A stretch of DNA of 64,000 nt from Fistulifera solaris (Eukaryota): NCBI GenBank assembly GCA_030295235.1, contig AP026135.1:1116001-1180000 (forward strand). The letters are read 5' to 3'. The translations under genes were made by a program, and so were the position numbers. This document shows positions 1,220 through 63,313 of the stretch, piece by piece (the first letter of the stretch is position 1; the number at the start of each line of letters is the position of its first letter). The notes below the pieces were generated by a model. The model was given only the letters and a program-made list of their open reading frames with translations. It did no database searches and was not told the origin of the DNA.

Positions 1220-1666
1220 CCGTTTCTTTCCAGAGTCCAGCCAAAGTCGATGCCCATGACATGATATTTGTAATTTGTCTTGGTATCTGAATGAATGAAC
1301 GAATAACACTTGATAACGTAGTATACTTGCAATGGGGAAAGTGGAAACTCAACACTCAACAACGACTCTCAAAGGGCGCGATCGATCGTATTGGTACGAA
1401 TAAACCTGTGAACATTTTAGACAAGAAGACATCAATTGATTCAAGCTTCGAGCTTCGTGTACTTATTAGGACCTTGTGTTCCATACTGTACTGCTGTAGT
1501 GATGAGCTGATGAGTGTTCGCTGTTCGCGATCTCTTCGTCAAGATCGGGATCAAGTAGGGGCAGTTGTATCCTTTGGAAATCAATCATCAAGTGCCCCCT
1601 CCATCGTCACAAATCGCAGTCACTTCCCAACCCGAAAATTAAAGCCTTCCATCAAACGCGCCAACC

Positions 1667-2184
1667 ATGAAGTTCGCTTTTGCACTCGCAGCTACGGTGT
1701 TCACGATCGGCAATGTCAGCGCCCAAACCACTCTTGAAGCTCCCGAAGTTGTGGTTTTTTACCTCAATACGAACGCGGCCTCGGATGCATGTAGCCCAGT
1801 TGAATATACCTATGTCGACAACAAGATCACTCCCGATTTGAACATGGCAATGTTCGACCACAACATTGAGGAAATCCAATGGACCACTTCCGATGGCGCT
1901 CCTAGTCGAAAGTTGCGTGCCGGGGAAGAGCGTGAGTTGAACCCGACGTGCGATTGGTGCCGCCCAATTTATGGCCGAGCCCTGTGCAACGTTCTGTATA
2001 ACTGTGGCTTCCGCCGCCGTCTTCAAGGAGGATCTACTCTCACTGAAGTGCAAAGGCGGAACTTGCAGCCTCTTTGAAAGCGTCTTGCGAGGAAAACTTG
2101 GCGTTCGCCGCCTCGCGCCCGACGATCAGCGCGGCTTGTGCAGCCGGACTCGCCGGAGCGGAGTGCTTCGTGCAGTACGTCTAA
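1667..2184 (+). CDS. Secreted Cys-rich precursor with RxL sites, paralog 1 (1-nt frameshift at ~2052)
   Basis: Signal peptide MKFAFALAATVFTIGNVSA. Collinear with 9884-10399 and 62762-63313. One added A in CAAAG (2051-2055) restores QKAELAASLKASCEENLA...AECFVQYV-TAA (stop 2182-2184), matching the paralog 2 C-terminus. Confidence 0.85.
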
Positions 2185-2364
2185 GGAAGAGAGATAATAT
2201 TGGAACATGCAACGGAACTTTCTCATAGTGCAACTCATAATCAGTTAACAAATCAAAGTATAGAAAACTGTCTCGTGTCATGTTTTTCGAAGTATAATGT
2301 AGGTCTTTGACGAGGGACCGTGTCTCATTCGCTGACGACCATATGTTCCTCTTGCTCTTTCTTT

Positions 2365-4378
2365 TCAATCGGAAGTTCCTAAATGACGTAGTAATAGATC
2401 CACCTGTTGTTGACTTTTCGATACAGAGACTGTCGGAATGATGCGTTGTGGTCTCCAGCATGCAATGCACTCTACCAATTCTGGAAAGCTCGAGTGCTCA
2501 CTGTACGGAACACTATGCACTGTCAGATTAGACCGAGCTGCAGTAGAGATGATTGTACCTTTTGCGAGCGACCACCCCGTTGGACGAAAACCAACTACTT
2601 TGTCGAAAGCCAACTCTTTCTTCCCTATTTTGACCTTGCAATACATATGAAGTTTCTTCATATTCACATGCCCCAATGGGACAACCCAAAGCATAGTTTG
2701 TTCTGGATTGGTTGTGATCCATTTTAAGTCGTCGTCGCCTAGGACAGCTTGCAGAATACGGAAACGCCGCTTGTCGACGTAGACTTTCTTGTTCAGTCGC
2801 TTCGCCACGGATAAGTAAATGCGCTCCTTCCCAATAGTGTACGCACCAAACACTAATAAGAGGCGCATCTTCTCATATTTGTGAACTTCCCTCACCGCAG
2901 TTTCCACTGCAGCCTGTATGGCCTCGGTCTGGGTCGGTAAGACGTACTTGGGATCACAATACGTCGTATCCAAAAAGAGATCGTCAATTTGATACCGTGT
3001 CCCTAAAACTGTCATTTCTTCTCGATGCCAACGAAAATCTCCGACGTGCATAATAATTCGCTTACCGACTTGAAAAGAAGCATGACGGCACCAGGACAAT
3101 GATTGGCATCGTGCAGTGTGACCGACACGGCCTTGTTGTTTGTAGTTACAATCGGAACAGCGACACCGACCGGCAGCGGGTGCAAGTATTGACGATCCAC
3201 TCCCAATTGCTGATTCACAAGGTTGGCGGTTGCTTCCGAGCAATAAATAGTTCCGCAATTCCATTGACGAGAAATGCCTCCGTAATGATCCGAATGAAAG
3301 TGCGTTAAGAAGTAATTGACAGTCAATGATGGAGTTGCGTACTGAAACCCGTCCACCACTAGCAAGTCGTGTGAGAGAGAGAGAGAGAGATGCGAAAGAC
3401 AGTTTTCTTGGACCAATGACACGTACCAAAATCAGTCCCTGGTATCATTTTGTAGAAAGGACATGCGCGACTGGAATATTTGGGCCCGCTCGACCATTGT
3501 CGTTTCTTGGCATTGTTGTTGTTCGTAGTTGTTGTAATCTTAGTTCGTGATTCTTTGCCTTCTTTCGGTTGTTTCGCTTCCTGTGCAACACGACGTGCCC
3601 CATTCATCAACATTAGTAGGGCATTCTGCGGAGCGGATGGTTTCTTTCGTTCGCTAGGCAATATAGTTAGCAAAGTAGTTTGTTGCATTTCTTTGGATGA
3701 TTTTTTCAAATTGTTGTTACACCATGCGGTCTCTTGGATACTCGCCTCTACAATAAATTCTTCATCCGGCTGTTCGATAACATCTTTCGCTTGCACTCCG
3801 TGCTTTTTTGAGCATCGCTTAATGTGATCCATCCGACCTTTCCATCCCGAGTGAATTGTTTCCAACAAATTAGCTCCGCATACAAAGCAGGTAGTAAGCT
3901 GTTCTGATGATTGATGTTTCAGTTCTTTTAGCGGCTCGAGTGAAATTGAAATGTGTAGTCGTTGCTCTTCTTTCGGCTTTGTTGAAGTGGGCTTGGCTGG
4001 ACTGTACGGATTGTGGATAATGCGTTGCTGAGGCTGTTGCTGCGTGGGTCGAATGAGACTTGTCAAGGGTTCATCTTCTTCACCCTCGTCGTCTTCTTCT
4101 GCCTCGTCATCTTCTTCTGCCTCGTCATCATCATCATCACCATCATCCGACGACAATATTTCTACAATTTGTGTACAATGAAAATCGTCTTCTGCTTCGC
4201 TGCTGATTCCGGCATCAAAGTCTTGAATGTCATCTTCGATGGTTGTTTCGATGTGCGGATCGTCATTTTCTTGCTTTTCCTCTGTCGATTGACACTTTGT
4301 GCATGTCAAATCGAGCACAAAGTCCTTGGCAATGAATTTTAGGGCGCAAACACGACAATTACGGACGATTCGTGGCAT
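2365..4378 (-). CDS. SNM1: DNA cross-link repair nuclease of the SNM1A/PSO2 family (UBZ finger + metallo-beta-lactamase + beta-CASP)
   Basis: Motifs THFHSDHYGG, DANHCPGA, HVGDFR, LDTTYC and VPYSEHSS; UBZ-like CFVC...HIKRC. Intron 3359-3426; 1-nt frameshift in a T run at ~3075. Confidence 0.92.
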
Positions 4379-4984
4379 TTTGAACCGTTCATTGCATCCT
4401 AATGATCATTGTCCAAGACAGGACGGCGTGATTATTATTTTTATCTCTGTGTGAATGACACCGTGCGAGCAAGGACGAGGGAGACGAGAAAGGTGCGAAC
4501 GTGCGGCATATAGAGTTGAGGTTATTTCACCGTTTCGTTTCGTCATTGGGTCTTGTGTCTCTCACGACTTACAAAGCGCGCCCCGCGTTAGCGTCACACT
4601 CCTACTTTCGAAAAGGGAGTCAATGCAAGTGCGGCATACTTGTTGCACCATACAAGTAACGCGAAACACGACACGCGGCAACCACACTTTTTCCCGGGAA
4701 GGAAAAAAAAAAAACGACACCGCCAATGAACCAACGAGCGACAAAGGGTTAGTTGTTCATGTCGAATCTCGAATCATTTCACGTTAAAGAGCATTTTTCC
4801 CAGTTCAAATTGTCAACGAATTCATTTGCTAGTCCCTCTATGCTGGTGTTTCATGAAATTACATTGCAACGCGCGCTAACAGATAGCTGCTTGCCATTCT
4901 TCTTATCAACTTGAACAAAAAAACACAATCCGTTCCTTTCTCTGCTATTCATTCCATCGTATTCTTCGCTTTTTAAGCTAAAAC

Positions 4985-7307
4985 ATGACAAATCATCATG
5001 AAGATGCCCCCGATGCGGTAGATCAGCTCGACTTTCCTTCGAAAGAGACGCAACAGAAAGAGGAAGCGCAAAACGACTTTGACGACTTTACTCACTCGGC
5101 GTCCGTTGTTGCGATCCATAAAGAAACGAAACAGGGGAATATGGTAGAGACGACAGGGACGATTGCAAAGCACGCGAACCAGGATTCTACAGAAGCTTTC
5201 GAACCTTCTGTTGTAGTGGTGGTGGACTCGGGAGGGACAAATACCGAAAATGTTGCAGATATTATTTCTCTCGATCAGAAAATGGCCGATCTGAAGATAC
5301 AAGAAACAGAAACAGCAGCTTCCAAAGATGCACGACGATTTGTGACAGCCAAAGACTTTGATCTATTAAAGGTCATCGGTATGGGCGCTTTTGGCAAAGT
5401 TTTACAAGTGCGACACAAACACACGTCCCGCATTCTCGCTATGAAAGTGATTTCGAAACGATTGTTGCTCCGAAAATCGGGTTACGTGGAGAATATTCAA
5501 GCCGAACGACAAATATTGACGCGAGTTCGCAGTCCCTTTGTGGTGACGATGCATTGTTCTTTTCAAACACGAGAGAAGCTTTTCATTATCATGGACTTCT
5601 TGGCCGGCGGGGAGTTGTTTTTGCGACTGGGACGAGAAGGAATCTTTCTCGAAAAGACGGCGGCTTTTTATTTGGGTGAGATCATTCTTGCTATTGACCA
5701 CTTGCATTCGCTGGGTATTTTGCATCGCGACTTGAAACCGTACGTAGAGTCTCGTATGGTGCTATGGTCGTACCCTTCCATACGTAATGCTGACGTTTCA
5801 TTTTCCATTGCAGCGAGAATATCTTATTGGGCGCAGACGGCCATGTTTGTGTGACGGATTTCGGACTGGCGAAAGATTTCTCGACTGTGGGCGGTTTCGA
5901 TGACGAAGAGAATCGGGCCCTGACCATTTGTGGCACGCAAGGTACGTTCGAGTACGCCAAATCCTCGTTTTCGAAAATTTGCATGAAGATCTGACAAGTC
6001 TTCGTATAGAGTATATGGCGCCCGAAATGCTTTCGGGACAAGGATATGGCCGATCGGCGGATTATTGGAGTTTAGGCTGTATCGCATACGAAATGCTTGC
6101 GGGCTTGCCACCATTCAAATCAAAAGACGGCCGAAAAGAGCTATTCCGTAAAATCATGTCCGAGAAAGTTAAGATGCCTTCTGGTAGCACAGCAGAGGCG
6201 TGTAGACTTCTGAAAGGATTACTGAACCGTAACGTACAAAAACGATTGGGTGCGGCGAAAAGCACAATGTTCGAAGTTGGGGGTGTGGCTGCGCTAAAGA
6301 ATGAACCGTTCTTCAAGCACCTAAACTGGGAGTATCTAACCAACAAGCAAATTGAGCCTCCGCAAGTTTTTTCCGTACAAGACGACCAGGATTTGAAGCA
6401 CTTTCACCAAGAGTTCACGGATATGGCCTTACCGCGATCTGTTGTTTTGATGAGCAAGGATGAATTTACGGCGCATCACGTCGAGTCGCAAAAATTTCGC
6501 GGATTTTCGTTCATTCACGATTCCTTTGACTTGCCAGAACGGCCGGAGTCGGAGTTAGAATCGTATTGGAAATCTATCGAAGAAGACGCGGTATCTGTAT
6601 CTGAATGCGCTAGCAGTAAGATGGATCACGAAGAAAGCGAGCAGCCGTCCACAGAATCTCCAACCAAGAAGCGACCTCCCCGCAAACGAAAGAAAAATAA
6701 AAATGATGCTTCTTGTGGATCTCCAGCAGCGTTTACCTGTACTTCACCTGCCCCATCCGATGTAAGAGTACCCGCGCCTTCGAAGCTAGAAGAAGATATT
6801 GCTGTAAAGCAGGACGATTGCAGTGCCAAGAAGCATACTTCAGAACCACCCACACAGCAAGAGCAGGAGAAGTTTATTGTTCCGACGATTCCCGGATCAA
6901 ACCACCAGAGGAAGCCGATCTTATTGTCAGTGGATACTTCCAGGAAGGCGTTCATGAGTACCGACGAGTGGCAGCACGTGGGAGAAACGTCTGCAAAAGT
7001 TTCACGCCAACGCTCTCTGGCAAAGACTGAAACTGCTAACAGCTGTCAATTTAAAACGCCAGGTGCAAAGGAAGTTACCAAGACTTTGTGGCAGCCATCA
7101 AACCAGCCTCAAAGCAGTACCCCCTTACCTTTGAATCGTTTGAAACAACCAGGAACTGCTGCATGGGGTGCACGTTCGGAGACGACCCCTCAAGCTCTGA
7201 AGGTCGCATCTCCTCCACCATCGTCTCGGCCACTTCCTTCTACGGATTGGCGATATCATCCTATGCCTTCACGAAAACCGATTTCTGTGGAGGGCAGAAA
7301 CCGTTAA
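4985..7307 (+). CDS. AGC-family Ser/Thr protein kinase (S6K/PKB-like)
   Basis: GMGAFGKV, AMK, HRDLKPEN (across intron 5740-5813), DFG, TICGTQEYMAPE (across intron 5942-6009) and hydrophobic motif FRGFSF. The true C-terminus may extend to 7435 via a frameshift. Confidence 0.92.
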
Positions 7308-7520
7308 AGCCGTCGTCGCAGCCAATTTGGCCGTCACTGGGTGGTGCGCGAGATAATTCGGCTTCCATTAGTAAAAATCTACCACCGACGAAACCGGCCC
7401 TGCAAGGAGCTTGGGCGTCAAAGGCTTTGAGGTGAAATTCCGTAACATATAACTAACTGTAGACTATAAGTTCTAGCAGCCTTGATAATTTAGTCGTTAA
7501 TTATGAAATATGATATTGCT

Positions 7521-8882
7521 CTACTTGGGTAGGCGCGACGAAATCAATTCATCATTCGAGTATTGAGCGGCTTGCTCAATCTCATATACGAGGCTGACTG
7601 CTTCGGCCACGCTTATTCGTTGACGCTCTAAAGGAGCTGCTCCATTTTGGCGTATGGTGCCGTCATGGCGCGGAGTCAATCGCCAGGCTTGCGTTCGCTT
7701 GTCATTGAAGCGTACACCTTGTCCGACACGTTCATCGTTAATGTACTGAAAGATATCGATGTAACCGGACTCGTTTTGAGTCTTTCCTTTTCCATTTCTT
7801 TTGTTGTAAAGAAATGTTCCTTCAAAGCGGACACCAGAAGAGAAGTAGTACAAACCGGAACCGTGCATTTGATTGTTTTCCCATTCACCAAAGTACAAGT
7901 CCCCATTTGCAAAGTAGAATCTACCTTCGCCTTCTCGTTTCCCGTTCGCATACTTTCCGACGTAGACGTCGCCGTTGGGATATCTCCGTGTTCCACTTCC
8001 GTGCATGTTATCGTTCGCCCAGTCTCCTACGTACTCGCCGTTATCGTGCTGGGTATCGGAAGCAAATGTAAGAACTCCGTGACCTGATCGTCGATCATTT
8101 ACAAATTGTCCCTTGTAGACGTCGCCATTACTCCAAGTCATAGTGCCTTCGCCATGTTTCTCTCCCTTACTATTATAAGGACCACTGTAAGTAGCTGTAT
8201 TTCGTTCCGTTTGCGAAACGCTCGTGCGTCTTGGTGAAAGAAACGGGACTCCTAGCGCTAATAGATCCGGTTTCTTTATTTGATTTTGACCTCCTTTTGA
8301 TTTCACAAAGCTAAGCGGGGGCGATCGTATCTTGTCTTCCGCATGAAGCGATGGTTTCGGTGAGAACTCGGAAAGGTCTTCAGTTTGTTGCTCCATGTTC
8401 GGAGACACTCTGCCATGAGTACTATTCACATCTGCGGAGTCGCAACTCTCGGAGGATCGGGATGTTCTGTGTGCATCGCATCTTAAACACTGTCCTCTCT
8501 CGACTAGTTGAGGAATGGTCAAAGGGACTTTGCGGTAAGGGTCTTCGCACGCTTTGCAATTCGGGAAGATGCTGAAGAGTCCGCATCTCTTCTCAAAGCC
8601 GTAAAGTTGTTGCCCGCAAGATTGACACTGACCGAGGGCTAGCCTTTTTGTTGTTGCGATTGCTCGTGTTCTACTTGTTGTATATCTAAAGATATTGTCA
8701 TGGTCATTCAGTGATTCAAAGAAAGGGTGAGAAACTAATGAAACACTTGCGAAGTGATGGATGCTTCGGTACCGTACCGTACCCTCTTGCAGTATTTTAT
8801 TACGTGTAGCTGTAGCGTCTGTATAAGGGCAGAGCGTGGTGTATTCCTCGTTGCTCGCCTTTCGCCACTTGCGTTGCTCCAA
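7521..8882 (-). CDS. MORN-repeat protein with N-terminal Cys-rich module
   Basis: Several YxGxW/Fxxx(H/E)GxG repeats (e.g. YVGDWANDNMHGSG, YFGEWENNQMHGSG). Probable intron near 8687-8780; start codon uncertain. Confidence 0.85.
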   Translation of the reverse strand: MEQRKWRKASNEEYTTLCPYTDATATRNKILQEGTVRYRSIHHFASVSLVSHPFFESLNDHDNIFRYTTSRTRAIATTKRLALGQCQSCGQQLYGFEKRCGLFSIFPNCKACEDPYRKVPLTIPQLVERGQCLRCDAHRTSRSSESCDSADVNSTHGRVSPNMEQQTEDLSEFSPKPSLHAEDKIRSPPLSFVKSKGGQNQIKKPDLLALGVPFLSPRRTSVSQTERNTATYSGPYNSKGEKHGEGTMTWSNGDVYKGQFVNDRRSGHGVLTFASDTQHDNGEYVGDWANDNMHGSGTRRYPNGDVYVGKYANGKREGEGRFYFANGDLYFGEWENNQMHGSGLYYFSSGVRFEGTFLYNKRNGKGKTQNESGYIDIFQYINDERVGQGVRFNDKRTQAWRLTPRHDGTIRQNGAAPLERQRISVAEAVSLVYEIEQAAQYSNDELISSRLPK

Positions 8883-9509
8883 AAATTTCAGTCGAACATC
8901 AAGCCGTGCCCAGCTGCCGCCTACTTAATACTATCGAAGAGGTAATCGGAGCTCAGTCTTGCTTCGACATAAATGACTGGATTTCTTATTACTAAAAGTA
9001 GACTTGAAGTGGGTGTCAAAGTCACAACTCGAACAGTGTGAACCGGTGTTTGTTCATTCATTGTTCATTTCGAGCCCAAAAACGGGTAACCCTAAGAGAA
9101 ATCAAGGTTGAGGGTACTCTTCAAACCATATAGCGCGGAGGAACAAACAAGCCAAAACTTAAAGAGGTTACGATTTGTTATCGTCGTTGATCACTGGTTG
9201 TGGGAATGAGAAGTACGCTTTCGTTCTACTCGAAAAATGTAACTGGAAAGATTATTCCGGCTTCTGATTTCTTATTAGGGATTTTCATTTTCAGTCCGTC
9301 GTCCGTCTTATTCGTGATTATGATCATTCTCTCTGATACTCTGATGCGACATGCGACACGCGGTGATGTGGACTGTGGATCTATAGATGGCCAATGCGAT
9401 GGTCAATGACTGCACTAAGAGCCACGTCTTCCGTGACTAGCAGGTACGAGTAAAGCACATAATACTATAAGAACAATATGGTGTGTGCCAAAACGTGAAA
9501 ACGGATATC

Positions 9510-9571
9510 AGTAGTTGAGTGTCTTGTGCTGTGCACATAGTAGTTGAGTGTCTTGTGCTGTGCACATAGTA
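9510..9571. repeat. 29-bp perfect tandem duplication
   Basis: GTAGTTGAGTGTCTTGTGCTGTGCACATA occurs at 9511-9539 and 9540-9568. Confidence 0.9.
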
Positions 9572-9883
9572 TCTTATCATTGGGTTCTTCCCTTCGGATA
9601 GCCCGTTCTAATTCTCTTAAGCCTTCGGTTGACCTCTTTAACCAGTGAAACAAATCCGATCGGTAGTACACTTTGTAATATACTTTACTCGTGAAGAAAG
9701 AAGATGACGGTGATCGAGTTTTCTTTCGGGGCATAGCATGCATCCGTATGTTTCTACAGAACACGACCAAAGGCCGAGGGGCAATTTTTGGACCCTTCAC
9801 GTAGCGCCCAGAATCCCATAATGCTAAGCCTTTGACAACGATTATCACTTTTACATCGCTCTCACACCTCCACATCCATCACC

Positions 9884-10399
9884 ATGAAAATTACATCTAC
9901 AGGATTTCTTCTGACGCTTGGTGTTGTCTCCGCTCAAAAGAAGTTAAGGAAAGCTCCAGAAATCATCGTTTACTATGTGAATGAACTTGCGCCGGCAGAC
10001 GTGTGCACTACCAAAGAGCTGAAGTATGTTGACAACAAAATTACTCCTGACTTGGACATGATTTTGCACCAGAAGAACTTTGCTGAAACCGAATGGACAA
10101 CTTCTGCTGATGCGGAAACTCGAATGTTGCGTAGCAGCGAAGATCGTGAGTTAAACGCTACATGCGATTGGTGCCGACGTAGGTATCCAAAGAGTCTCTG
10201 CAATTCGATGTACAACTGCGGTTTCCGCCGTCAGCTACAAACAGGAACTCAACTTACGGACTCGCAGAAAGCGGACCTTGCCGCTGCGTTAAAGACGGCG
10301 TGCGATGAAAACCTTGCTAGTGCGGCCTCTCGCCAAGTGCTCCGCAATACATGCGGAGCTGCAATCGCCGGCGCAAAGTGCTTTGTTGAGTTCAACTGA
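9884..10399 (+). CDS. Secreted Cys-rich precursor with RxL sites, paralog 2 (intact, 171 aa)
   Basis: Signal peptide MKITSTGFLLTLGVVSA; RML, REL and RQL sites; core NATCDWCRRRYPKSLCNSMYNCGF. Confidence 0.88.
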   Translation: MKITSTGFLLTLGVVSAQKKLRKAPEIIVYYVNELAPADVCTTKELKYVDNKITPDLDMILHQKNFAETEWTTSADAETRMLRSSEDRELNATCDWCRRRYPKSLCNSMYNCGFRRQLQTGTQLTDSQKADLAAALKTACDENLASAASRQVLRNTCGAAIAGAKCFVEFN

Positions 10400-10620
10400 T
10401 GGCCTTGCGCGTCTCGACCTGCATCAAGAACTCTACTGCCCTCATAATAAAATTCATAATCCATAGTACTGAATAACAAATTTGTCTATGGGGTATAAGA
10501 GATAAGAGAGATTACCAAATATAATATTCGCGGGGATGTAAAAACATTTCATTTTGTTCCTTCGAATAGAGAGTGACGATTCACATATAAACCCACACAA
10601 ATTGCTGTGATTTCTCAGAT

Positions 10621-38680: not shown

Positions 38681-41600
38681 GAATAGGAAATCGGCAGGGA
38701 AGGTGAACCTTCGATCGAGGTCCCTTCCTGAGCCTTTTGTCCATATTTATCGGTCGTTTATTGTTGGAGCTTTCGCCGAAGCATTTTATTCTTTGCTGGT
38801 TGATTGTGGAGTGCTTTTCTTGGTGGCGTCATTTCCGTGTTGCTGCGACCATCTCGAAGTGGTTGCGTGCCCAAAGTGCAGCTCATCGTCGCTCTCTTGG
38901 TCTTCGACGCGATTCACGCCTTTGCCCGAGCGTCTCATCTCTCTCCCGTGTCGTTTCATGGTGCTTTCTTCGATCATGACGAGCATGTGGCGAGTGACGC
39001 TTACGCTCGGCGCCCCCGGTGTTGTTTATGGAGTCAACTTGGTGCCCGCCTGGCATGGCTGCTACCAGTTTCATCCAAGTGATCGCAGCCGACGTTTGCG
39101 CCGACCTCCTGATCCTTCTTCATCTTCAAAAGATTCGTCTTGTCAGCATGGTGAGGATGGTGTTTTTCGGCGTCGCAAGCAAAATCGTTTTGTCGAAACT
39201 GCGAGAGGAGCAAACGTCGTCGAAGACTTCGAAGCGATTCCTCGTTGGGCCTTGGAGCTTCCGGATATGATTGACAGCAATGGCCATTTGTGTACCGAGT
39301 CTTTAGATTTATCGTGTCCGCCGAACGGGCATCCTAAGCCTTGGAACCTACTGGACGACTCTCTTCTGTTTTGCTATCCCACTGGGCATTTCTTTCCAGA
39401 GGGAGCTGCTAGTGAAAGTGAGACGATGTTGCTTCGGGAGGGAGATAATAGTGTAGACAACTCTAAAGCCTACTTTGCACCGTACGCGAAGCTGCCCCCG
39501 TCTATTTATGCCCTCCCTGCTTTGCATCAAGTGCATGTCGCTGGAAAGCCTACCATGGCGGATCTGTTTCCGGTTATTTGGGATACTGGAGCCACAGTTG
39601 CTGTTACTTTCGACCGTGCTGACTTCACGTCCTACACTCCGACTACTGGCGATAAAGTTTTGTCTGGCTTTGCTGCAGGTTCTTCGATTGCCGGCACGGG
39701 CACTCTTGAGTGGACTGTTACTCTGTCCAACGGCAAGGGCTTTACTTTTCGGGTCCCTGGATTACATGTGCCCGATGCCAATGTCCGACTCTTCAGCCCA
39801 CAGTCCTACTGTCAATTGGTGAAGGCGCAACGAAACGACGAACCGCGTTTTTCAGGCGACTCGAGCCTCATTCATGTCGATCTGTTGGACGGCCACTTTC
39901 TTGATATTGTTTACTCTCCGGAAAACAACTTGCCTACTCTGGAGATGTTCCGAAAACAATCTGTTGCTCTCAATGCTGCAAAGATTCGAAACTGTGTGAC
40001 CGCGGCTGAGAATCAAAACTTGAGTGAAGCACAGAAATTTCTTCTTCGCTTACATTTCCGATTTGTTCACCGAAGCATGAAAAATATTCAAGCCTTGCTC
40101 AAAACCGGCGCTCTCGGAAATTCTGCTGAAGTCAAAGCGGCGGCGCGTTGTGATATTCCCAAGTGCGCTGCTTGTATGTATGGAAAAGGAAAGCGCAAGT
40201 CGACTGGAGCGAAATTGACCGTCGATCGCCAATCCAAAGTTCTCTCGAAGGATATTTTAATTCCGGGCCAGAAGGTTTCAATGGATCACTTCTCTGTTTC
40301 AACGAGAGGTCGTCTCTACTCTGGTTTCGGTGGTACCAAGGATGATGAGAAGTTCAAAGGCGGTGTTATTTTTGTCGATCATGCAAGTGGCTTCGTGTAT
40401 GTCGTTCACGTTTTGAATTTTACTGCTGGCGAGGCTTTGCGCGCCAAGTTGGAGTTCGAAAGTGCAATGGCTAATCACGGCATCACGGTGGTCCAATATC
40501 ATACCGACAATGGCACGTTTACGGCGCAGGAGTTCGCAAAGCAAATTGATACGAACTACCAGTCGATGACTCTCAGTGGACCTGGTGCTCACCACCAAAA
40601 TGCTGTTGCTGAGCGCGCGATCGGAAGTATTATATCTCTCGCACGCACCACGATGCTACATGCTAAACTGCGTTGGCCGAAAGCGATTTCTTCGGATTTG
40701 TGGCCTCAGGGCGATCGATTATGTCGTTCAAAATTTCAACTACGGACCCGGGCGAAAATAATTCATCTCCGGCTGATATGATCTTCAGAACAACGACCGA
40801 TCGGAAAGTGTTTGCTGATATGCATGTATGGGGATCACCCGCTTATATTTTGAACCCTCAGTTGCAAGATGGGCACAAGATTCCGAAATTTGAACCTCGC
40901 TCGAGACGCGGCGTTTTCTTGGGTTTGTCAAAGCGGCATGCATCGAATGTTCCTGTCGTTCTGAACCTAGAAACAAACCGGATTTCCGCGCAGTTCCATG
41001 TTGTTGTTGATGATTGGTTTGCCACTGTTTCGAATGTTGTTAATGAGGATGATTCTGTCGATCCGGAGACTTGGGCCGACATCTTCGCATCATCTCGCTT
41101 TCAGGTATTTTTCGATGAGGATGATCCGATCGACTTGGATGATGAATGGTTGAGTCAAGATGAGTTGCATGTTCGAATTCAAGAGCGATCTCGCAAAATT
41201 CGAAGCGTCCAAGACACTGCTAGCCCTCCAGTTGATTTCGACAAAGTGCACCAGCGATTACGAACCGATGCCGAGCCTACAACTGAAAAGAGTTCAAACG
41301 AGCCTACATTGCAGAGGGAGCCAGAACAAAAGACAGTTACTACTCCTGTTAAATTATCTGAGCCTATTTCAAAGCCGGTTGAGCCGATTCCTGCTCCAAA
41401 GGTTGCTGTGGATGCCAAGCCTCCATCAAGTTCGCCGCGGAAGAAGACACCAGCGGTTCCTGCCGAACCTCGCCGATCCACTCGCGAGACGTGCTCCAAA
41501 GAGATTCAACGAATTTATTACAAACGTTGCTTCGGTTGTTCTTGCGCCGATTCCTCGCGAAACTTTCTCCTTTATTGCGTCGATTCATTCCGGCCTTGTT

Positions 41601-43639
41601 GCTTGTTGGGATTCGGAGATCGGCGAGTTTGATTTGCGCGACCCTGTTGCTTTCGCCGCTATGCAGCGTGCAAAGAAGCCAAAGAAAGGTTCCGATCCCG
41701 ACTATCCAATGTATCATCAAGCAATGTCGTCTGCCGAATATCGAGAATGGCAAGAGGCGATGGTGAAAGAAATTCGAATGTTGGAGATGATGGGGACGTG
41801 GAAGAAAATTCCGCGAGCTTCAGTACCTGCGAATAAGCGCGTGATAAAATCCACTTGGGCGTTTCGGCTTAAACGTTCACCGGATGGGACACCCACGAAG
41901 TACAAGGCGAGATTTTGCGTTCGTGGCGACATGGAGATAAAAGGAGTAGACTACTTCGAGTCCTACTCTCCTGTCGTACAGTGGTCCACAGTTCGGTTGC
42001 TGTTAATTATGTCCATCGTCCACGGAATGCATACCCGCCAAGTTGATTATGTCAATGCGTTCGCTCAAGCTCCTTTGCCACCTACTGAAGAGTGCTACAT
42101 CGAGATGCCTCAAGGATTTCACGACGATGGCGAAGATACTGTTTTGATGCTCCAAAAGACGCTTTACGGCAAGTCCGACAGTCCTCTCCGATTCTTCAAC
42201 TTATTGAAGGACACTTTGGAGAAGCATGGTTTCAAACAGTTGGTCGACATCGATGCTTGCCTGTTCGTGCACGAAAATTATTTGTTTGACTTATGTCGAT
42301 GATTGCCTTTGGTTCAGTCTCGATGAAAAGTGCATGGATGACATGATTGACACTATTGACAAGGTTTTAACTTTAACTGTGGAGTCGAAAGATGTTTCCG
42401 CGTTCTTGGGAATTCAGTTTACCCGTCGTGGAGATACTATCGAGTTGACCCAGAAAGGTCTCATTAAACGCTGTCATCGAAGCCACCGACATGGCTGATT
42501 GTAATTCTGCGACACGCCTGCTGAAAACAAGCCATTGGGAAAAGATTTGGCTGGTGCTGCGTTTGCCGAGTCTTGGAATTATGCTTCGGTTGTCGGAATG
42601 TTGCTCTACTTGTCGTCAAACTCTCGACCGGATATTGCATTTGCCGTCCATCAGTGCGCTCGTTTCACTCATTCGCCAAGACAAAGTCATGCTAAAGCGA
42701 TCAAGAGAATCGTCCGCTATTTAAAAGGAACGGCAGATCGTGGTTTGGTGATGCGTCCGACGAAAGAGTTGAAAATTGATTGTTTTGTTGATGCCGACTT
42801 TGCCGGATTGTGGGGTGCTGAAGATCCTGAAGATCCGATAAGTGTGAAGTCGCGTACTGGTTATATTTTGACGCTCGGCAATTGCCCCCTACTTTGGGTA
42901 TCGAAGCTACAGTCTGAAATCTCTCTAAGTACAATGGAGAGTGAATATGTCGCATTGAGTACCGCCATGCGCGATGTTTTGCCGATGCGAAGACTTGTTA
43001 CTGCTGTTGCTAAGGCTATTACTGGAGAAGACCAAGTCGAGAGCATTGCCCATTCGGATGTATTTGAAGACAATAATGGAGCTCACTCTTGCTACGATTC
43101 CGCGGATGACCCCTCGCTCGAAGCACTACGGCACGAAGTATCATTTCTTCCGACAACATGTTCAAAGTGGTGAATTGAAAATCAACAAGATTGACACTAA
43201 AGAACAGCTTGCAGATATCATGACGAAAGGAATGCCTAGGGAAACATTTACCTATCTTCGAGACAAGTTAATGGGTTGGGTTGAAAGTGGTCCCTCTTCG
43301 TCTGAGAGGGAGTGTCACGGAAATGCGGATAGCGGGCAGACTACTAGGGACTCAGCCAATATGGCCGCACGACCTAATGCGAATTCCGATCCCCAAATCG
43401 GAAGCATCCGGAGTGTAACCTCTTGGGCGAGGCCCAAGGGTCTTTGCACGATTTGGGTTGATCGTGAAGGCGTGAAAGGTTTGCAAGCAACGCGATACAA
43501 GAATGTTAGAGCCACATACGTGAGCTCAGAATTTCAAGATAAAACAAGACCTAGTCCGATGGCAGTGACATTCTCGGCGGAACCATCACCCAGTGAGATT
43601 CCACCTTGTTCATTTGTCGGATTTGTAAAGGCTTCATAA
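38649..43639 (+). CDS. pol: Retrotransposon Pol: protease, integrase, reverse transcriptase, RNase H (several 1-nt frameshifts)
   Basis: PR IWDTGA; IN HFRFVH...CAAC, SMDH, HTDNG, AERAI; RT KARFCVRG, QVDYVNAF, YVDD; RH FVDADFAG, ESEYVA, QLADIMTK. Confidence 0.95.
43304..43312 (+). promoter_or_regulatory. Polypurine tract
   Basis: GAGAGGGAG immediately before the 3' LTR. Confidence 0.85.
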
Positions 43640-47270: not shown

Positions 47271-48396
47271 TTACAATATTTGCGCTCCCACTTTGGCAAT
47301 ACCTTCTGCTTTCATAAATTCTTCGCGTAATGTGTAAATATATTGCATCATTTTGATTTCAATCGGTGTCATCGTGATAGTATTGAAAAAGTCGACGTGG
47401 AGAACGACGCGTTCTTGTGTTTTGTGCGCATTGAATGTTTCGTGTCGATAGGTAGTATCGTACAACAAGCACTTCCCTTTCTCATAATACCGCTTCTGAT
47501 CCGCTACTTGAATCCATGCGGATTCCGGTTCCAATTCAATGCCCATTTGTGCGGTCAGCCACATGTTGTTGCCATCGGTGTGATTCGGAATGCCCGAATT
47601 GGGTTGCTGTCGATTGAAACCCGCAATGCGTCCAGCCAAGGGTACCGTTTCGAGCAATCGTGTGGTAGTGGGACACAAATGATAAGGAAAGTTGGGTATG
47701 CGATGGCCGTTGTAAAACAAGACCAGTGTTTTCCATCCGCTTTCGTAATTCATACTCGTAACGGATTGGAAACGATCGACACTGTCTTCCATGAGAGCGT
47801 GATATTCTTGCACAATCGTATCGTAATGTTTCGTCAATTGTTGACACAACGCCACTTGCGAAGGCTCATAAAAGGGCTGACCGGGTCCTAATCCAGGCAT
47901 GTAGGCATGTAATTCATCGACTGGTCGAAAGGGATCCAAAGGTTCCTCCAGTTTGGGCAAATCAGGGTTGACCGCGTGTCGCAAGAAGCCAGCGATTCTG
48001 ATTAACTCCTTGTCATTCACAGAGAACTTGGATTTTAATAAAGAAGGAATGAGTTGCCAGAACGGATCGTCCGTTCCTTGTACTGCTTGTCCTAAAACCG
48101 ATTGACTGGCTTGTTCTTGCAACTCTGCTAACCAGGCATCGGTTTCCGATTTCACGTATGGTTTGTTAGTAGAAGGTGCTTTCTTCTTTTGCCCTTTTCA
48201 TTTGTTTGTTTTTCTTTTTTGGGTGTTTGATTTGCTTTCGGTGCACCAAATCCTTTCCCCGAAGATGCTTTGAGCAAAGAAACGATTCGTTGTCTCGAAT
48301 GATGATTATTCGACGACGACGTCACAGAAAAAGGCTCCTGTGTTGCTGTTACAAAGCAGTAGCAACGCACAAAAAAGCTGTCACGAACGATAACAT
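47271..48396 (-). CDS. Aspartyl/asparaginyl beta-hydroxylase-like 2OG-Fe(II) dioxygenase, probably plastid-targeted
   Basis: CPTTTRLL, IPNHTDG (HxD), YDTTYRHETFN and RVVLHVDF. N-terminus reconstructed through two indels as MLSFVTAFLCVATA-FV. Confidence 0.82.
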
Positions 48397-56156: not shown

Positions 56157-58335
56157 ATGAGCTACAACAACAACAACAACAACAACAACAAGCGCAACAA
56201 TTCGCACGATAATAGCAAACGCCGTTGCATCGGAGGCATTCGTTCGTCTCCTCGCTATCCAGCGGCGACCGCGCACTTGACCGCAACTGCGGAAGGGATC
56301 CACAAACTGGTCGAGCATGATTTTCCTCTACTAGTATGGTTGTTGTCATCTTCTACAACGTCTTTGCAAGATCGCATTTACGATGGAAAAGAAACACTAT
56401 GCGTAGAATTACTTCCATCCGTACAACGACAAATACAACAATCTCTCGAACGATCCGACGATATTCCTCTCATTCGTATTCACGGCATTCTCGAACGACC
56501 CCATCAAGCACCGAATATTGTATTAGCATCTGCTGAATACGTACGATTTGCTCATGATCACGAAGTCAATCCCATTCGATCACATAGCGCAACTTGTACG
56601 TCGCGATCCTTTACGCCCGATCCGAAGGTGGGAGGATTTACGCCCGTCTTTTTACAACAATGGGCGCCTTTCTTGTCGAATGAGGAACTAGCGGGAATCG
56701 CTACAACTACTTCGAATTGTAAATTGGAGACGCAACAACCTATTTTGAACTTCTTTCAACAACATGCGGCACGGCAAACATTGCAACGACAACAGCAACA
56801 GACGCATAGTATCCTTCATTCCGTGAATCACGACGATGACCAAAACAACAACGACTCTGACCACAGCACCGCAACAGCTTCGTCACAGCAACAAGTCTAT
56901 TGGAAGGCACTAAAGGACTTTCAGCAAACGCAAATGGACAAACAATCGGCCAGTCTCACTTCCAATGTGGGACGAGAAACGGCGGCGGTGGCAGAAAAGG
57001 TCGTGGCACAACATCGCAAAGCACTCGAGCAAGCGTTACTAGACGAAACAACAGCACTGACACCGCAGCTGTTGATGCAGTGGCATGCCATCCTGTTGCA
57101 AGGACTACATGCACAAGCGGGGCAGTACCGAACCAAGACCGTCAAAGTCGGCTTGACGCAATTTCAAAGTCCCACCAATGTCATGCACGACATGGAAACC
57201 GCTTGTCACATACTGGAAACAGTACTGCGTCCCCGCTTACTTCATCAACCCCAGACGGCCGTGACCTTTGCGGCCGCCGTCTTCATGGCCATTGTGGATG
57301 TCCATCCCTTTGCGGATGGCAATGGTCGTTTGGCACGCATTGCGTTGAATTGGGCCGCTCGTGTTGCCGGTTTCCCCATTTCGATTCATTGGTGTGCAAC
57401 GCCGCAGCAGCGGCACGAGTATTCGCAGGCGATTATGAATACCCGCCGTAATTTACATTTTCAAGCGTATGGTGATGTCCACAAAGAGCAACTATTGGAG
57501 GCCTATCAGACCTTTGGAGCATTCCGGCCGCTGGTGCAATGGATTGTACAACGCTGGAATAAAACGATAGCGGAATGGGAGAATGTGATGCGCGAGAAGT
57601 CAGCGCACGCGCAAGAACAAGACGAAGCGCGTGCGGCGCGTCGGGTCCGGGAGGCGTGCGGCGGCGGGATCGTGTTTGATTTGTTTGGACGATTCTCCCA
57701 ATATTTCGACGTTGTGTTGTGGGAAAGCCGTACATTTGAATTGTATGGCGGAATGGTTGGCCCAACAGAATACGTGTCCGCAATGCCGGAATGAACTGCC
57801 GGCCTTGTCGCGGCCGCCCAATACCAATAACGGCAATGCTCGAGCGATCAATGATACGGAATCCGTGGCAAATGACGACGGTGATACGAATAGTATCGAG
57901 GAAGAACCGGGATTTTGGCAACAGATAGTAATTGACCAAATTGCCCAACACATTCAAAACAGCAATAACAACAACGTCAACAACGGTAACAATAACAACA
58001 ACCAGAATGACACAGAAAGCACAAACTCAACCGAAGACACCCAAGAGGCAGACGATAATGATACATCGGTGGCGAGCGGCAACGGCATAATACCGGAAGG
58101 AAGTGAGACGATGGAGTATTTCCGATCGATCTACGGACCGGACTTCAATCCGAACGACACAGACGACACGAACGACACAACCGAGAGTGGCCATCGTCCA
58201 CCCACGCCGCCTCCGTTTTGTTCATACAACCAGTGCAACAATCGCTCCGCTCGGGATTGCGCGAATGACGCGTGCGGTAAATGTTGTGTCACCTGGGGAC
58301 AATATGGTTGTCAGCGACACAATACGTCGTACTAG
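56157..58335 (+). CDS. Fic-domain protein fused to a RING finger and a C-terminal Cys/His zinc finger (frameshift ~57655)
   Basis: HPFADGNGRLAR; CLICLD...LCCGKAVHLNCMAEW...CPQCR; CSYNQCNNRSARDCANDACGKCC...CQRH. Confidence 0.85.
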
Positions 58336-62761: not shown

Positions 62762-63313
62762 ATGAAGCTCTTGCTAATCAGTTTGCTATCCGTTCTCTCT
62801 TTCGCCCACGGCCAACTGGATGGAGAATTGTTTGCACCGGCGGAGCCGCCCGAGATGGTCGTCTACTATGTAAATTGGCAAGCTCCATCCACTGTCTGCA
62901 ATGAAACCGAACTTGCGTACATTGACAACAAGATGCTCCCCGACCTGGACATGACTTTAGTGCAAAACAACTTTGAGACGCCGGCGTGGGAAGTTCCCTC
63001 CACCTTGACGCGACGTGAACTTCAAAATGGCAATGCGAATCCCAACAACAATGGCAAAGCAAACAACTGCGACTTTTGCCGACGTTATTACCCTCGCAGT
63101 CTTTGCAATGTAATGTACAACTGCAGAAATCGTCGTGAGCTTCGTGGGGCTGCAGAAGAAAAGCGTGAACTGCAAACTCATGAAGAACTTCAAGCCGAAC
63201 TTCTTAGTGCTTGCAGGAACAGCATCATGGAGCTCTTATACAGCCGACAAATCAGCCGTAATTGCAAGCGAGCCATTCGATGGGCGCGATGCTATGTCCA
63301 AATTATGGAGTAA
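62762..63313 (+). CDS. Secreted Cys-rich precursor with RxL sites, paralog 3
   Basis: Signal MKLLLISLLSVLSFAHG; PPEMVVYYVN, YIDNKMLPDLDM, three REL sites, CDFCRRYYPRSLCNVMYNC and C-terminal ARCYVQ. Confidence 0.88.
   Translation: MKLLLISLLSVLSFAHGQLDGELFAPAEPPEMVVYYVNWQAPSTVCNETELAYIDNKMLPDLDMTLVQNNFETPAWEVPSTLTRRELQNGNANPNNNGKANNCDFCRRYYPRSLCNVMYNCRNRRELRGAAEEKRELQTHEELQAELLSACRNSIMELLYSRQISRNCKRAIRWARCYVQIME

Follow-up and report, generated by a model that had tools for sequence, protein, structure and literature searches.

The window analyzed here is a stretch of 64,000 nucleotides from the genome of Fistulifera solaris (contig AP026135.1, positions 1,116,001 to 1,180,000). It harbors three genes on the plus strand that encode small, cysteine-rich and probably secreted proteins: copy 1 at 1667..2184, copy 2 at 9884..10399 and copy 3 at 62762..63313. 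All copies share a common layout, in which a signal peptide is followed by an N-terminal part (N-part) with one cysteine, RxL (Arg-x-Leu) sites, a core with four cysteines, an RRxL stretch and a C-terminal part (C-part) with three cysteines (alignments A1 and A2). An earlier reading made from the sequence alone (the sequence-only reading) had described this layout and its motifs for three genes, and the alignments bear it out. As genes, 9884-10399 and 62762-63313 are intact, whereas 1667-2184 cannot be read as one frame. A fourth copy was not detected in the window by tblastn. Compared with the 171-amino-acid protein of copy 2, that of copy 3 is 37% identical and the two pieces into which copy 1 is broken are 53-55% identical.

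Copy 2 is a single, intron-free open reading frame of 171 amino acids plus stop. Its predicted signal peptide (9884..9934, residues 1-17) ends in VSA before Q18. The N-part (9935..10120, residues 18-79) carries, in this order, PEIIVYYVN, its only cysteine C41, YVDNKITPDLDM and a tryptophan (alignments A2 and A3). Linker 1 (10121..10153, residues 80-90) reads RMLRSSEDREL; RxL occurs in it twice, as RML(R) at residues 80-82 and as REL at residues 88-90 (10145-10153). The core NATCDWCRRRYPKSLCNSMYNCGF (10154..10225, residues 91-114), with the spacing C94-x2-C97-x8-C106-x5-C112 and a preceding sequon NAT, lies between REL and RRQL, exactly at the coordinates that had been assigned to it before. 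RRQL itself (10226..10237, residues 115-118) is the best-kept short stretch of the family. The remainder (10238..10396) comprises the variable spacer 2 (residues 119-131) and the C-part (residues 132-171) with C140, C157 and C166. Four public sequencing runs (X1-X4) were compared as contigs over positions 1500-10600 of the window, and a 452-nucleotide contig of X4 is colinear with copy 2 at 9884-10335 with 0 differences. Copy 3 has an intact frame of 183 amino acids from the ATG at 62762, in which an RREL upstream of the core (63011-63022) is followed by an Asn-rich spacer plus core (63023-63130, the core itself at 63059-63130) and a second RREL downstream of it (63131-63142). In copy 1 the core NPTC...NCGF is located at 1940-2011 and RRRL at 2012-2023; a frameshift occurs near 2051-2065. 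The C-termini of the window proteins are CFVEFN (copy 2), CYVQIME and CFVQYV.

The three genes had been taken for a three-member family. This number is too low, as the family comprises at least 32 clusters at E<=1e-3. A word-based search returned five close relatives with 87, 83, 70, 59 and 58% identity, the 87% match of the copy 2 protein being a hypothetical protein of Fistulifera solaris. Two of the five are named hypothetical proteins of this species with the same longest contig listed for both, a hint at conserved linkage of copies 1 and 2. A profile built from seven sequences and scored against 1.84 billion representatives matched 32 clusters at E<=1e-3, 15 at <=1e-10 and 7 at <=1e-30, with lengths of 60-357 amino acids; among the matches, P0010 (183 amino acids) is a close relative of copy 3. 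Identity within the family ranges from 87% to about 25%, and its only named relatives are those of Fistulifera solaris. A further word-based search, with the distant member P0028, retrieved nothing but P0028. Pfam searches with the three window proteins yielded no match at E<=10 except a sub-threshold phage family, and those with the 32 members gave no consistent family, only four unrelated ones in one member each. A metagenome scan with the A2 pattern matched 157 stretches, none of which was a relative by tblastn, and a literature search that included the Fistulifera locus tags found no paper on this family. The family is unnamed and new to the databases searched.

Conservation is concentrated on the cysteines and on the stretch behind the core. 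Five cysteines (C94, C97, C106, C112 and C157) never vary in 32 aligned sequences (A3), and C41, L118, C140 and C166 vary hardly at all. Among 29 sequences, the mean frequency of the most common residue is highest in RRxL (0.72), followed by the core (0.47), linker 1 (0.41), the C-part (0.39), the N-part (0.35) and spacer 2 (0.27). The contrast between variable spacers and conserved cores that the sequence-only reading had noticed in three genes therefore holds across the family. Single pairs of close relatives differ in this respect. When copy 3 is compared with P0010, the core shows the lowest conservation (18 of 24 residues identical, 6 different), compared with 60 of 64 (4 different) in the N-part, whereas copy 2 and P0005 show the opposite pattern with identical cores (24 of 24). 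Exposed core residues could be changing faster in one paralogue, copy 3, as seen in this one pair.

The RxL sites on both sides of the core were counted in 39 aligned sequences, namely the two intact window proteins plus 37 fetched ones, from which the close orthologues P0005, P0006, P0007, P0009 and P0010 were dropped before the count. Expected numbers were derived from 2000 shuffles per sequence with the cysteine positions fixed. An upstream RxL ending no more than 20 residues before the equivalent of C94 is present in 30 of 33 evaluable sequences (4.0 expected), and a downstream RxL starting no more than 8 residues after the equivalent of C112 likewise in 30 of 33 (1.7 expected). Both flanks carry the motif in 27 of 32 representatives, where 0.2 would be expected. 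Homologues without RxL at these positions would have spoken against processing, and the large majority keeps the motif. The middle residue varies (Q, R, E, H, N, I, K or S), while R and L are fixed, which gives these sites the appearance of a recognition site.

The distribution of cysteines divides the protein into the same modules. Splitting 34 full-length sequences by script at the linkers into N-part, middle piece and C-part gave cysteine counts of 1-4-3 in 17 sequences, 1-6-3 in nine, 1-4-1 in three (P0033, P0036 and P0041), 2-4-3 in two, and 2-4-2, 1-7-3 (P0037) and 1-5-4 (P0021) in one each. The middle piece thus holds four or, in some clades, six cysteines in 32 of the 34. Such a change in steps of two is as expected of a self-contained module, and because the middle piece gains its cysteines in pairs and independently of the rest, the core probably closes its disulfides on itself. 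C140 and C166 are jointly missing in P0033, P0036 and P0041. Their joint loss suggests a C140-C166 pair and leaves C41-C157 by elimination, a bond by which the N- and C-parts would stay covalently tied. From these counts we infer two disulfides within the core, one between C140 and C166 and one between C41 and C157. The counts fit the earlier proposal of a core with two disulfides and of N- and C-chains linked through 1+3 cysteines.

Structure prediction by AlphaFold2 for copy 2 reached a mean predicted local distance difference test score (pLDDT) of 60.0 with seven sequences, and of 75.4 with a predicted template modeling score of 0.60 when 32 sequences were used. The N-part is modeled with a strand (27-32) and a helix (43-63), with a block pLDDT of 77-91 over residues 21-70. 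The core consists of short helices (87-100 and 103-110; block pLDDT 72-76), and the C-part of two helices (126-148 and 155-162) and a strand (165-170), with a block pLDDT of 91-94 over residues 131-170. Besides residues 1-3, only the two RxL stretches (78-90 and 116-120) have values below 50; in the model this suggests that both RxL linkers are flexible and accessible. A complex prediction of the N-part and C-part with the core as partner scored 0.00 in two runs, in which the alignment was unused, and counts neither for nor against such a complex. Fold searches returned no relative: a Foldseek search of PDB had its best match at E 1.5, with none at E<=0.001, and not one of the 48,161 chains aligned with VIA-align reached Z>=8, the best Z of 6.4 belonging to mixed alpha+beta (ferredoxin-like) domains within the noise range of the tool. 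The best score in the ESM Atlas was 0.75, below the lead level of the tool, and a sequence-profile search of PDB found only zinc-ribbon eL43 chains at profile positions 99-136 (E 0.048-0.068, not significant). Thionins appeared in Foldseek with E 2.9-6.3 and probability 0.13-0.25 over about 40 columns and were not counted. As neither Foldseek nor VIA-align found a match, no characterized single-domain fold explains the family, and Pfam and the PDB sequences provided none either; a fold of that kind would have contradicted the sequence-only reading.

The predicted properties of the proteins point to the secretory route. The hydrophobic maximum of copy 2 is N-terminal (Kyte-Doolittle value of 1.63 at residue 3 in a window of 15, covering residues 3-17), and the signal peptide was called from this hydropathy and from small residues at -3/-1 read from the sequence. 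A second hydrophobic segment or membrane anchor was not found in four family proteins, whose maximum hydropathy beyond residue 25 (window 15) is 0.74-1.29. Diatom plastid presequences are expected to carry an aromatic residue after the cleavage site. In copy 2 the residue after the predicted signal cleavage site is Q, which is not aromatic and was counted for the secretory rather than the plastid route. A sequon (NAT, NRT or NGT) is located directly before or in the core in 9 of the 39 sequences. The core had been called a small cationic peptide. This applies to the window copies, with a net charge of +3 in copies 2 and 3 and, by our count, +1 in copy 1, but not to the family, in which the charge of the core ranges from -2 to +7. 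Its aromatic residues are more constant across the family than its charge.

On these grounds the family is tentatively interpreted as orphan diatom secretory precursors that are cut at their RxL sites into a disulfide-linked N/C pair plus a small two-disulfide peptide; we regard this as the leading explanation, if one still far from secure. The signal peptide would be removed first. A putative diatom RXL endoprotease, the same as is thought to process silaffins and silacidins, would then cut both linkers in the endoplasmic reticulum, the Golgi or a post-Golgi compartment. Cutting would yield a two-chain N/C protein held together by disulfides and a two-disulfide peptide of 24-28 residues, which may either be set free or stay docked. 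Candidate biological roles are those of a signal, a defence molecule or a wall- or silica-associated component. We infer the step from conserved motif to cleavage from the silaffin precedent. Mature silaffins lack the RRIL or RRNL that ends each repeat unit of the precursor, and it has been proposed that a diatom endopeptidase recognizes RXL as its general motif (PMC4557024). RXL domains are also described in Sin1 and SAPs (PMC5525289, PMC5647440).

A number of observations weigh against cleavage of this kind. For none of the family members has a cleavage product been seen, and PMC5647440 says of the part played by RXL sites in the processing of precursors that it 'remains to be proven'. The upstream RxL is absent in P0014, P0023 and P0026 and the downstream one in P0018 (RRKV), P0021 and P0026, and the shuffle control overstates independence since the sequences are related. 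RxL also occurs inside the core (RSL, RAL, RYL or RPL) in 6 of the 39 sequences (P0002, P0007, P0008, P0009, P0010 and P0013), and in two of the three window copies, with RSL in copy 3 and RAL in copy 1. RxL alone can thus not define the cut sites; the context must decide, or the sites are perhaps uncut. The disulfide pairing is derived from cysteine counts and not from coordinates, and the middle piece has odd counts in P0037 (seven) and P0021 (five) as split by the script, although on our reading P0021 becomes 1-6-3 if the cysteines replacing its RR are counted with the core. The N- and C-parts are conserved and modeled confidently with the core as one chain, and the conserved R and L in the linkers could have a role in folding or binding.

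These points lead to a possible, though less probable, alternative, namely a single folded, secreted or wall-bound domain with eight cysteines that remains uncut or is only nicked in its loops, with R and L kept for folding, salt bridges or ligand contact. In the model, residues 21-171 form one alpha+beta unit in which the strands 27-32 and 165-170 flank the helices, and the pLDDT of the core block fits such a unit. All three modules are conserved, not the core alone; RxL inside the core of several members indicates that the motif is insufficient for cutting; and processing is a prediction for every member. An uncut domain does not account as well for the low model confidence of precisely the two RxL stretches, for the variable x between fixed R and L and the tandem upstream sites, which resemble recognition motifs, or for the cysteine count of the middle piece, which shifts by twos and independently of the rest. 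A role in the organic matrix, as part of the silica cell wall or of the silica deposition vesicle and not as a soluble peptide, is unlikely. It would agree with the statement in PMC5647440 that RXL cleavage sites occur so far only in biosilica-associated proteins, and with SiMat7-like proteins, which PMC5501833 describes as having a signal peptide, RXL and eight conserved cysteines. However, the proteins lack the C-terminal transmembrane segment of the SiMat7-like proteins, copies 1 and 2 have no Ser/Lys-rich, acidic or Asn/Gln-rich low-complexity regions, and no profile match is longer than 357 amino acids. Very improbable is a metal site, in which C-x2-C plus two further cysteines, with conserved Met and Asn nearby, would hold zinc, copper or iron in place of disulfides. 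The zinc-ribbon eL43 chains are the only profile matches to solved structures, but their E-values are at chance level; the second cysteine pair is C-x5-C, not C-x2-C, and a signal peptide together with an even number of cysteines is typical of oxidized secretory proteins. The frameshift of copy 1 in the window, and the fact that no listed public run is on record as RNA, could be taken as signs of a chance layout or an annotation artefact instead of real genes. The likelihood of this is negligible: three paralogues with conserved cysteines, 32 clusters down to about 25% identity, gene models for relatives in Fistulifera solaris and the exact match of the X4 contig refute it in practice.

Processing at RxL would place the family beside known diatom precursors. 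The silaffin Sil1p, silacidins, cingulins and frustulins are likewise diatom proteins with an endoplasmic reticulum signal peptide and R-x-L, including R-R-x-L at unit ends. Silaffin-type precursors consist of Ser/Lys-rich, polyamine-bearing or acidic low-complexity repeat units and are linked to silica, whereas the proteins described here consist of cysteine-rich modules modeled as helices and strands, without a repeat array or a known link to silica. In the Pfam searches no sequence similarity of the family to such precursors was detected. The sequence-only reading had also remarked on the missing composition of silica peptides, and the translations indeed contain no Ser/Lys-rich, Tyr/Trp-rich or acidic low-complexity units, only a short Asn-rich spacer in copy 3. 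SiMat7-like proteins and silicanin share with the family a signal peptide, RXL, eight conserved cysteines (compared by number, not by pattern) and conservation in diatoms, as described in PMC5501833 and PMC5525289, but possess a C-terminal transmembrane domain that is absent here, in proteins of about 170 amino acids. Sin1 further has a 341-residue Asn/Gln-rich luminal domain; this comparison was made on published descriptions. RXL-bearing diatom secretory precursors as such are already known, and what is new is this RXL-bearing family.

A resemblance also exists to the RXLR-EER effectors of oomycetes, which are likewise secreted stramenopile proteins. For Phytophthora infestans, PMC11754927 reports cuts that precede secretion, in RXLR between the L and the R that follows it, and in EER behind the R. 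Of the 39 family sequences, 31 contain R-x-L-R; in 9 of the 39 it is followed by [ED][ED][KR] within 12 residues, as it is in copy 1 of the window (RKLRAGEER). In copy 2, RMLR at residue 80 is followed by EDR in a stretch with pLDDT below 50, 62 residues past the signal peptide and behind the structured N-part. In the effectors the motif closely follows the signal peptide, within a disordered leader, whereas here it stands behind a conserved N-part of about 60 residues. They also have a WY/LWY domain and are delivered to a host, while Pfam assigned no such domain to the 32 members and the closest named relatives come from a free-living alga without a host. The literature search found no paper mentioning both RXLR and silaffin. 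The resemblance to RXLR/EER is a lead only. It is doubtful, though conceivable, that R-x-L(-R) and E-E-R-like sites are read by one ancient stramenopile processing system shared by oomycete RXLR/EER and silaffin RXL. The family would then encode a genuine diatom pro-peptide that releases a conserved, aromatic-rich, two-disulfide peptide of 24-28 residues as an extracellular signal, for example in cell-cell recognition, or for defence, and the N/C heterodimer would serve as its chaperone or carrier.

The order of events in the favored reading, RxL cleavage of one precursor, had been likened to insulin. As an analogy this stands: insulin and relaxin, like plant 2S albumins, arise from one precursor by cuts at basic sites in loops and consist of chains held by disulfides. 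The likeness is restricted to this logic, since insulin and relaxin have a six-cysteine domain pattern, whereas the family has another cysteine pattern and matches them neither in sequence (Pfam) nor in fold. The excised middle piece of insulin is a cysteine-free, poorly conserved spacer. Here, by contrast, the middle piece is rich in cysteines and the best conserved.

We know of no diatom protease established as the reader of RXL since silaffins were first described. A small folded family outside the silaffins whose RxL sites have stayed in one and the same pair of loops despite deep divergence would therefore offer a clean test substrate for RXL processing. It would serve to test whether RXL is a general maturation signal of diatom secretion, which protease reads it, and whether it is akin to the RXLR/EER processing of oomycetes. 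If the middle module is released, this would be the first gene-encoded family of disulfide-rich secreted peptides in diatoms known to us, also by the literature search. If the ancient shared processing is true, diatoms would possess a peptide-hormone-like system, and the family would offer a compact folded substrate for finding the RXL protease. If the protein is uncut, it would be one more orphan cysteine-rich secreted domain.

The frameshift in copy 1 was analyzed with the public runs. The frame from 1667 ends with a stop at 2075-2077 after 136 amino acids, and the C-part continues in another frame (2062-2181). Intact relatives of copy 1 with 172 amino acids exist in P0008 and P0009, and the tblastn alignment of P0008 breaks at 2053-2065. 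Since 1667-2184 spans 518 bases, which is not a multiple of three, the sequence-only reading had crossed a one-base frameshift without mentioning it. In X1, the sole contig in this region (depth 17.5 of 17.5) has an additional A after position 2051, within a homopolymer stretch of A, and one contig of X3 (depth 4.3 of 4.3, which is low) has it as well. With this extra A both pieces of copy 1 would fall in one frame. We consider a homopolymer error in the assembly more likely than a pseudogene, and the X1 and X3 contigs with the extra A may represent either the copy 1 locus or a second copy about 91% alike in the same runs. An extra A also occurs behind 3072 in X1 and X2, in the region of the neighboring gene for a DNA-repair metallo-beta-lactamase (2365-4378, minus strand). 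Errors in homopolymer length may therefore break reading frames in the window assembly, including copy 1 and the metallo-beta-lactamase region.

The runs further contain a second version of parts of the locus that is about 91% alike. A contig of X3 differs at 24 of 264 bases over 9983-10246, and a contig of X1 differs at 21 positions over 2104-2527, with the segment 2229-2342 replaced. Fistulifera solaris is an allodiploid, and the second version fits a divergent allele or a homeologous subgenome. Elsewhere in the stretch, contigs of X3 and X4 show poly-T loose ends and a joint that skips a GT..AG interval. X3 and X4 thus probably hold complementary DNA, which is a weak hint of transcription only. 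X2-X4 have no cover over 8796-9707, and this was not used as evidence.

The genes around the three copies are ordinary nuclear genes with no evident functional link to the family. Besides the DNA-repair metallo-beta-lactamase they include genes for a protein kinase, a MORN-repeat protein, a response-regulator domain, TPR proteins, a copia-type retroelement, an Asp/Asn beta-hydroxylase, a phosphoribulokinase, a Fic protein and RNase P p30. Two open reading frames at 4985-7307 (plus strand) each encode half a protein kinase domain and are joined in X3 and X4 contigs via GT..AG, skipping 68 bases (5939 to 6008); they form one kinase gene with a short intron. At 38958-43639 (plus strand), overlapping open reading frames encode a retroviral-type SH3-like domain and a copia-type reverse transcriptase (RVT_2). 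This region is a Ty1/copia-like retroelement whose frames are apparently broken. The Asp/Asn beta-hydroxylase domain protein (47271-47900, minus strand) and the Fic-domain protein (56157-57794, plus strand) are both encoded between copies 2 and 3.

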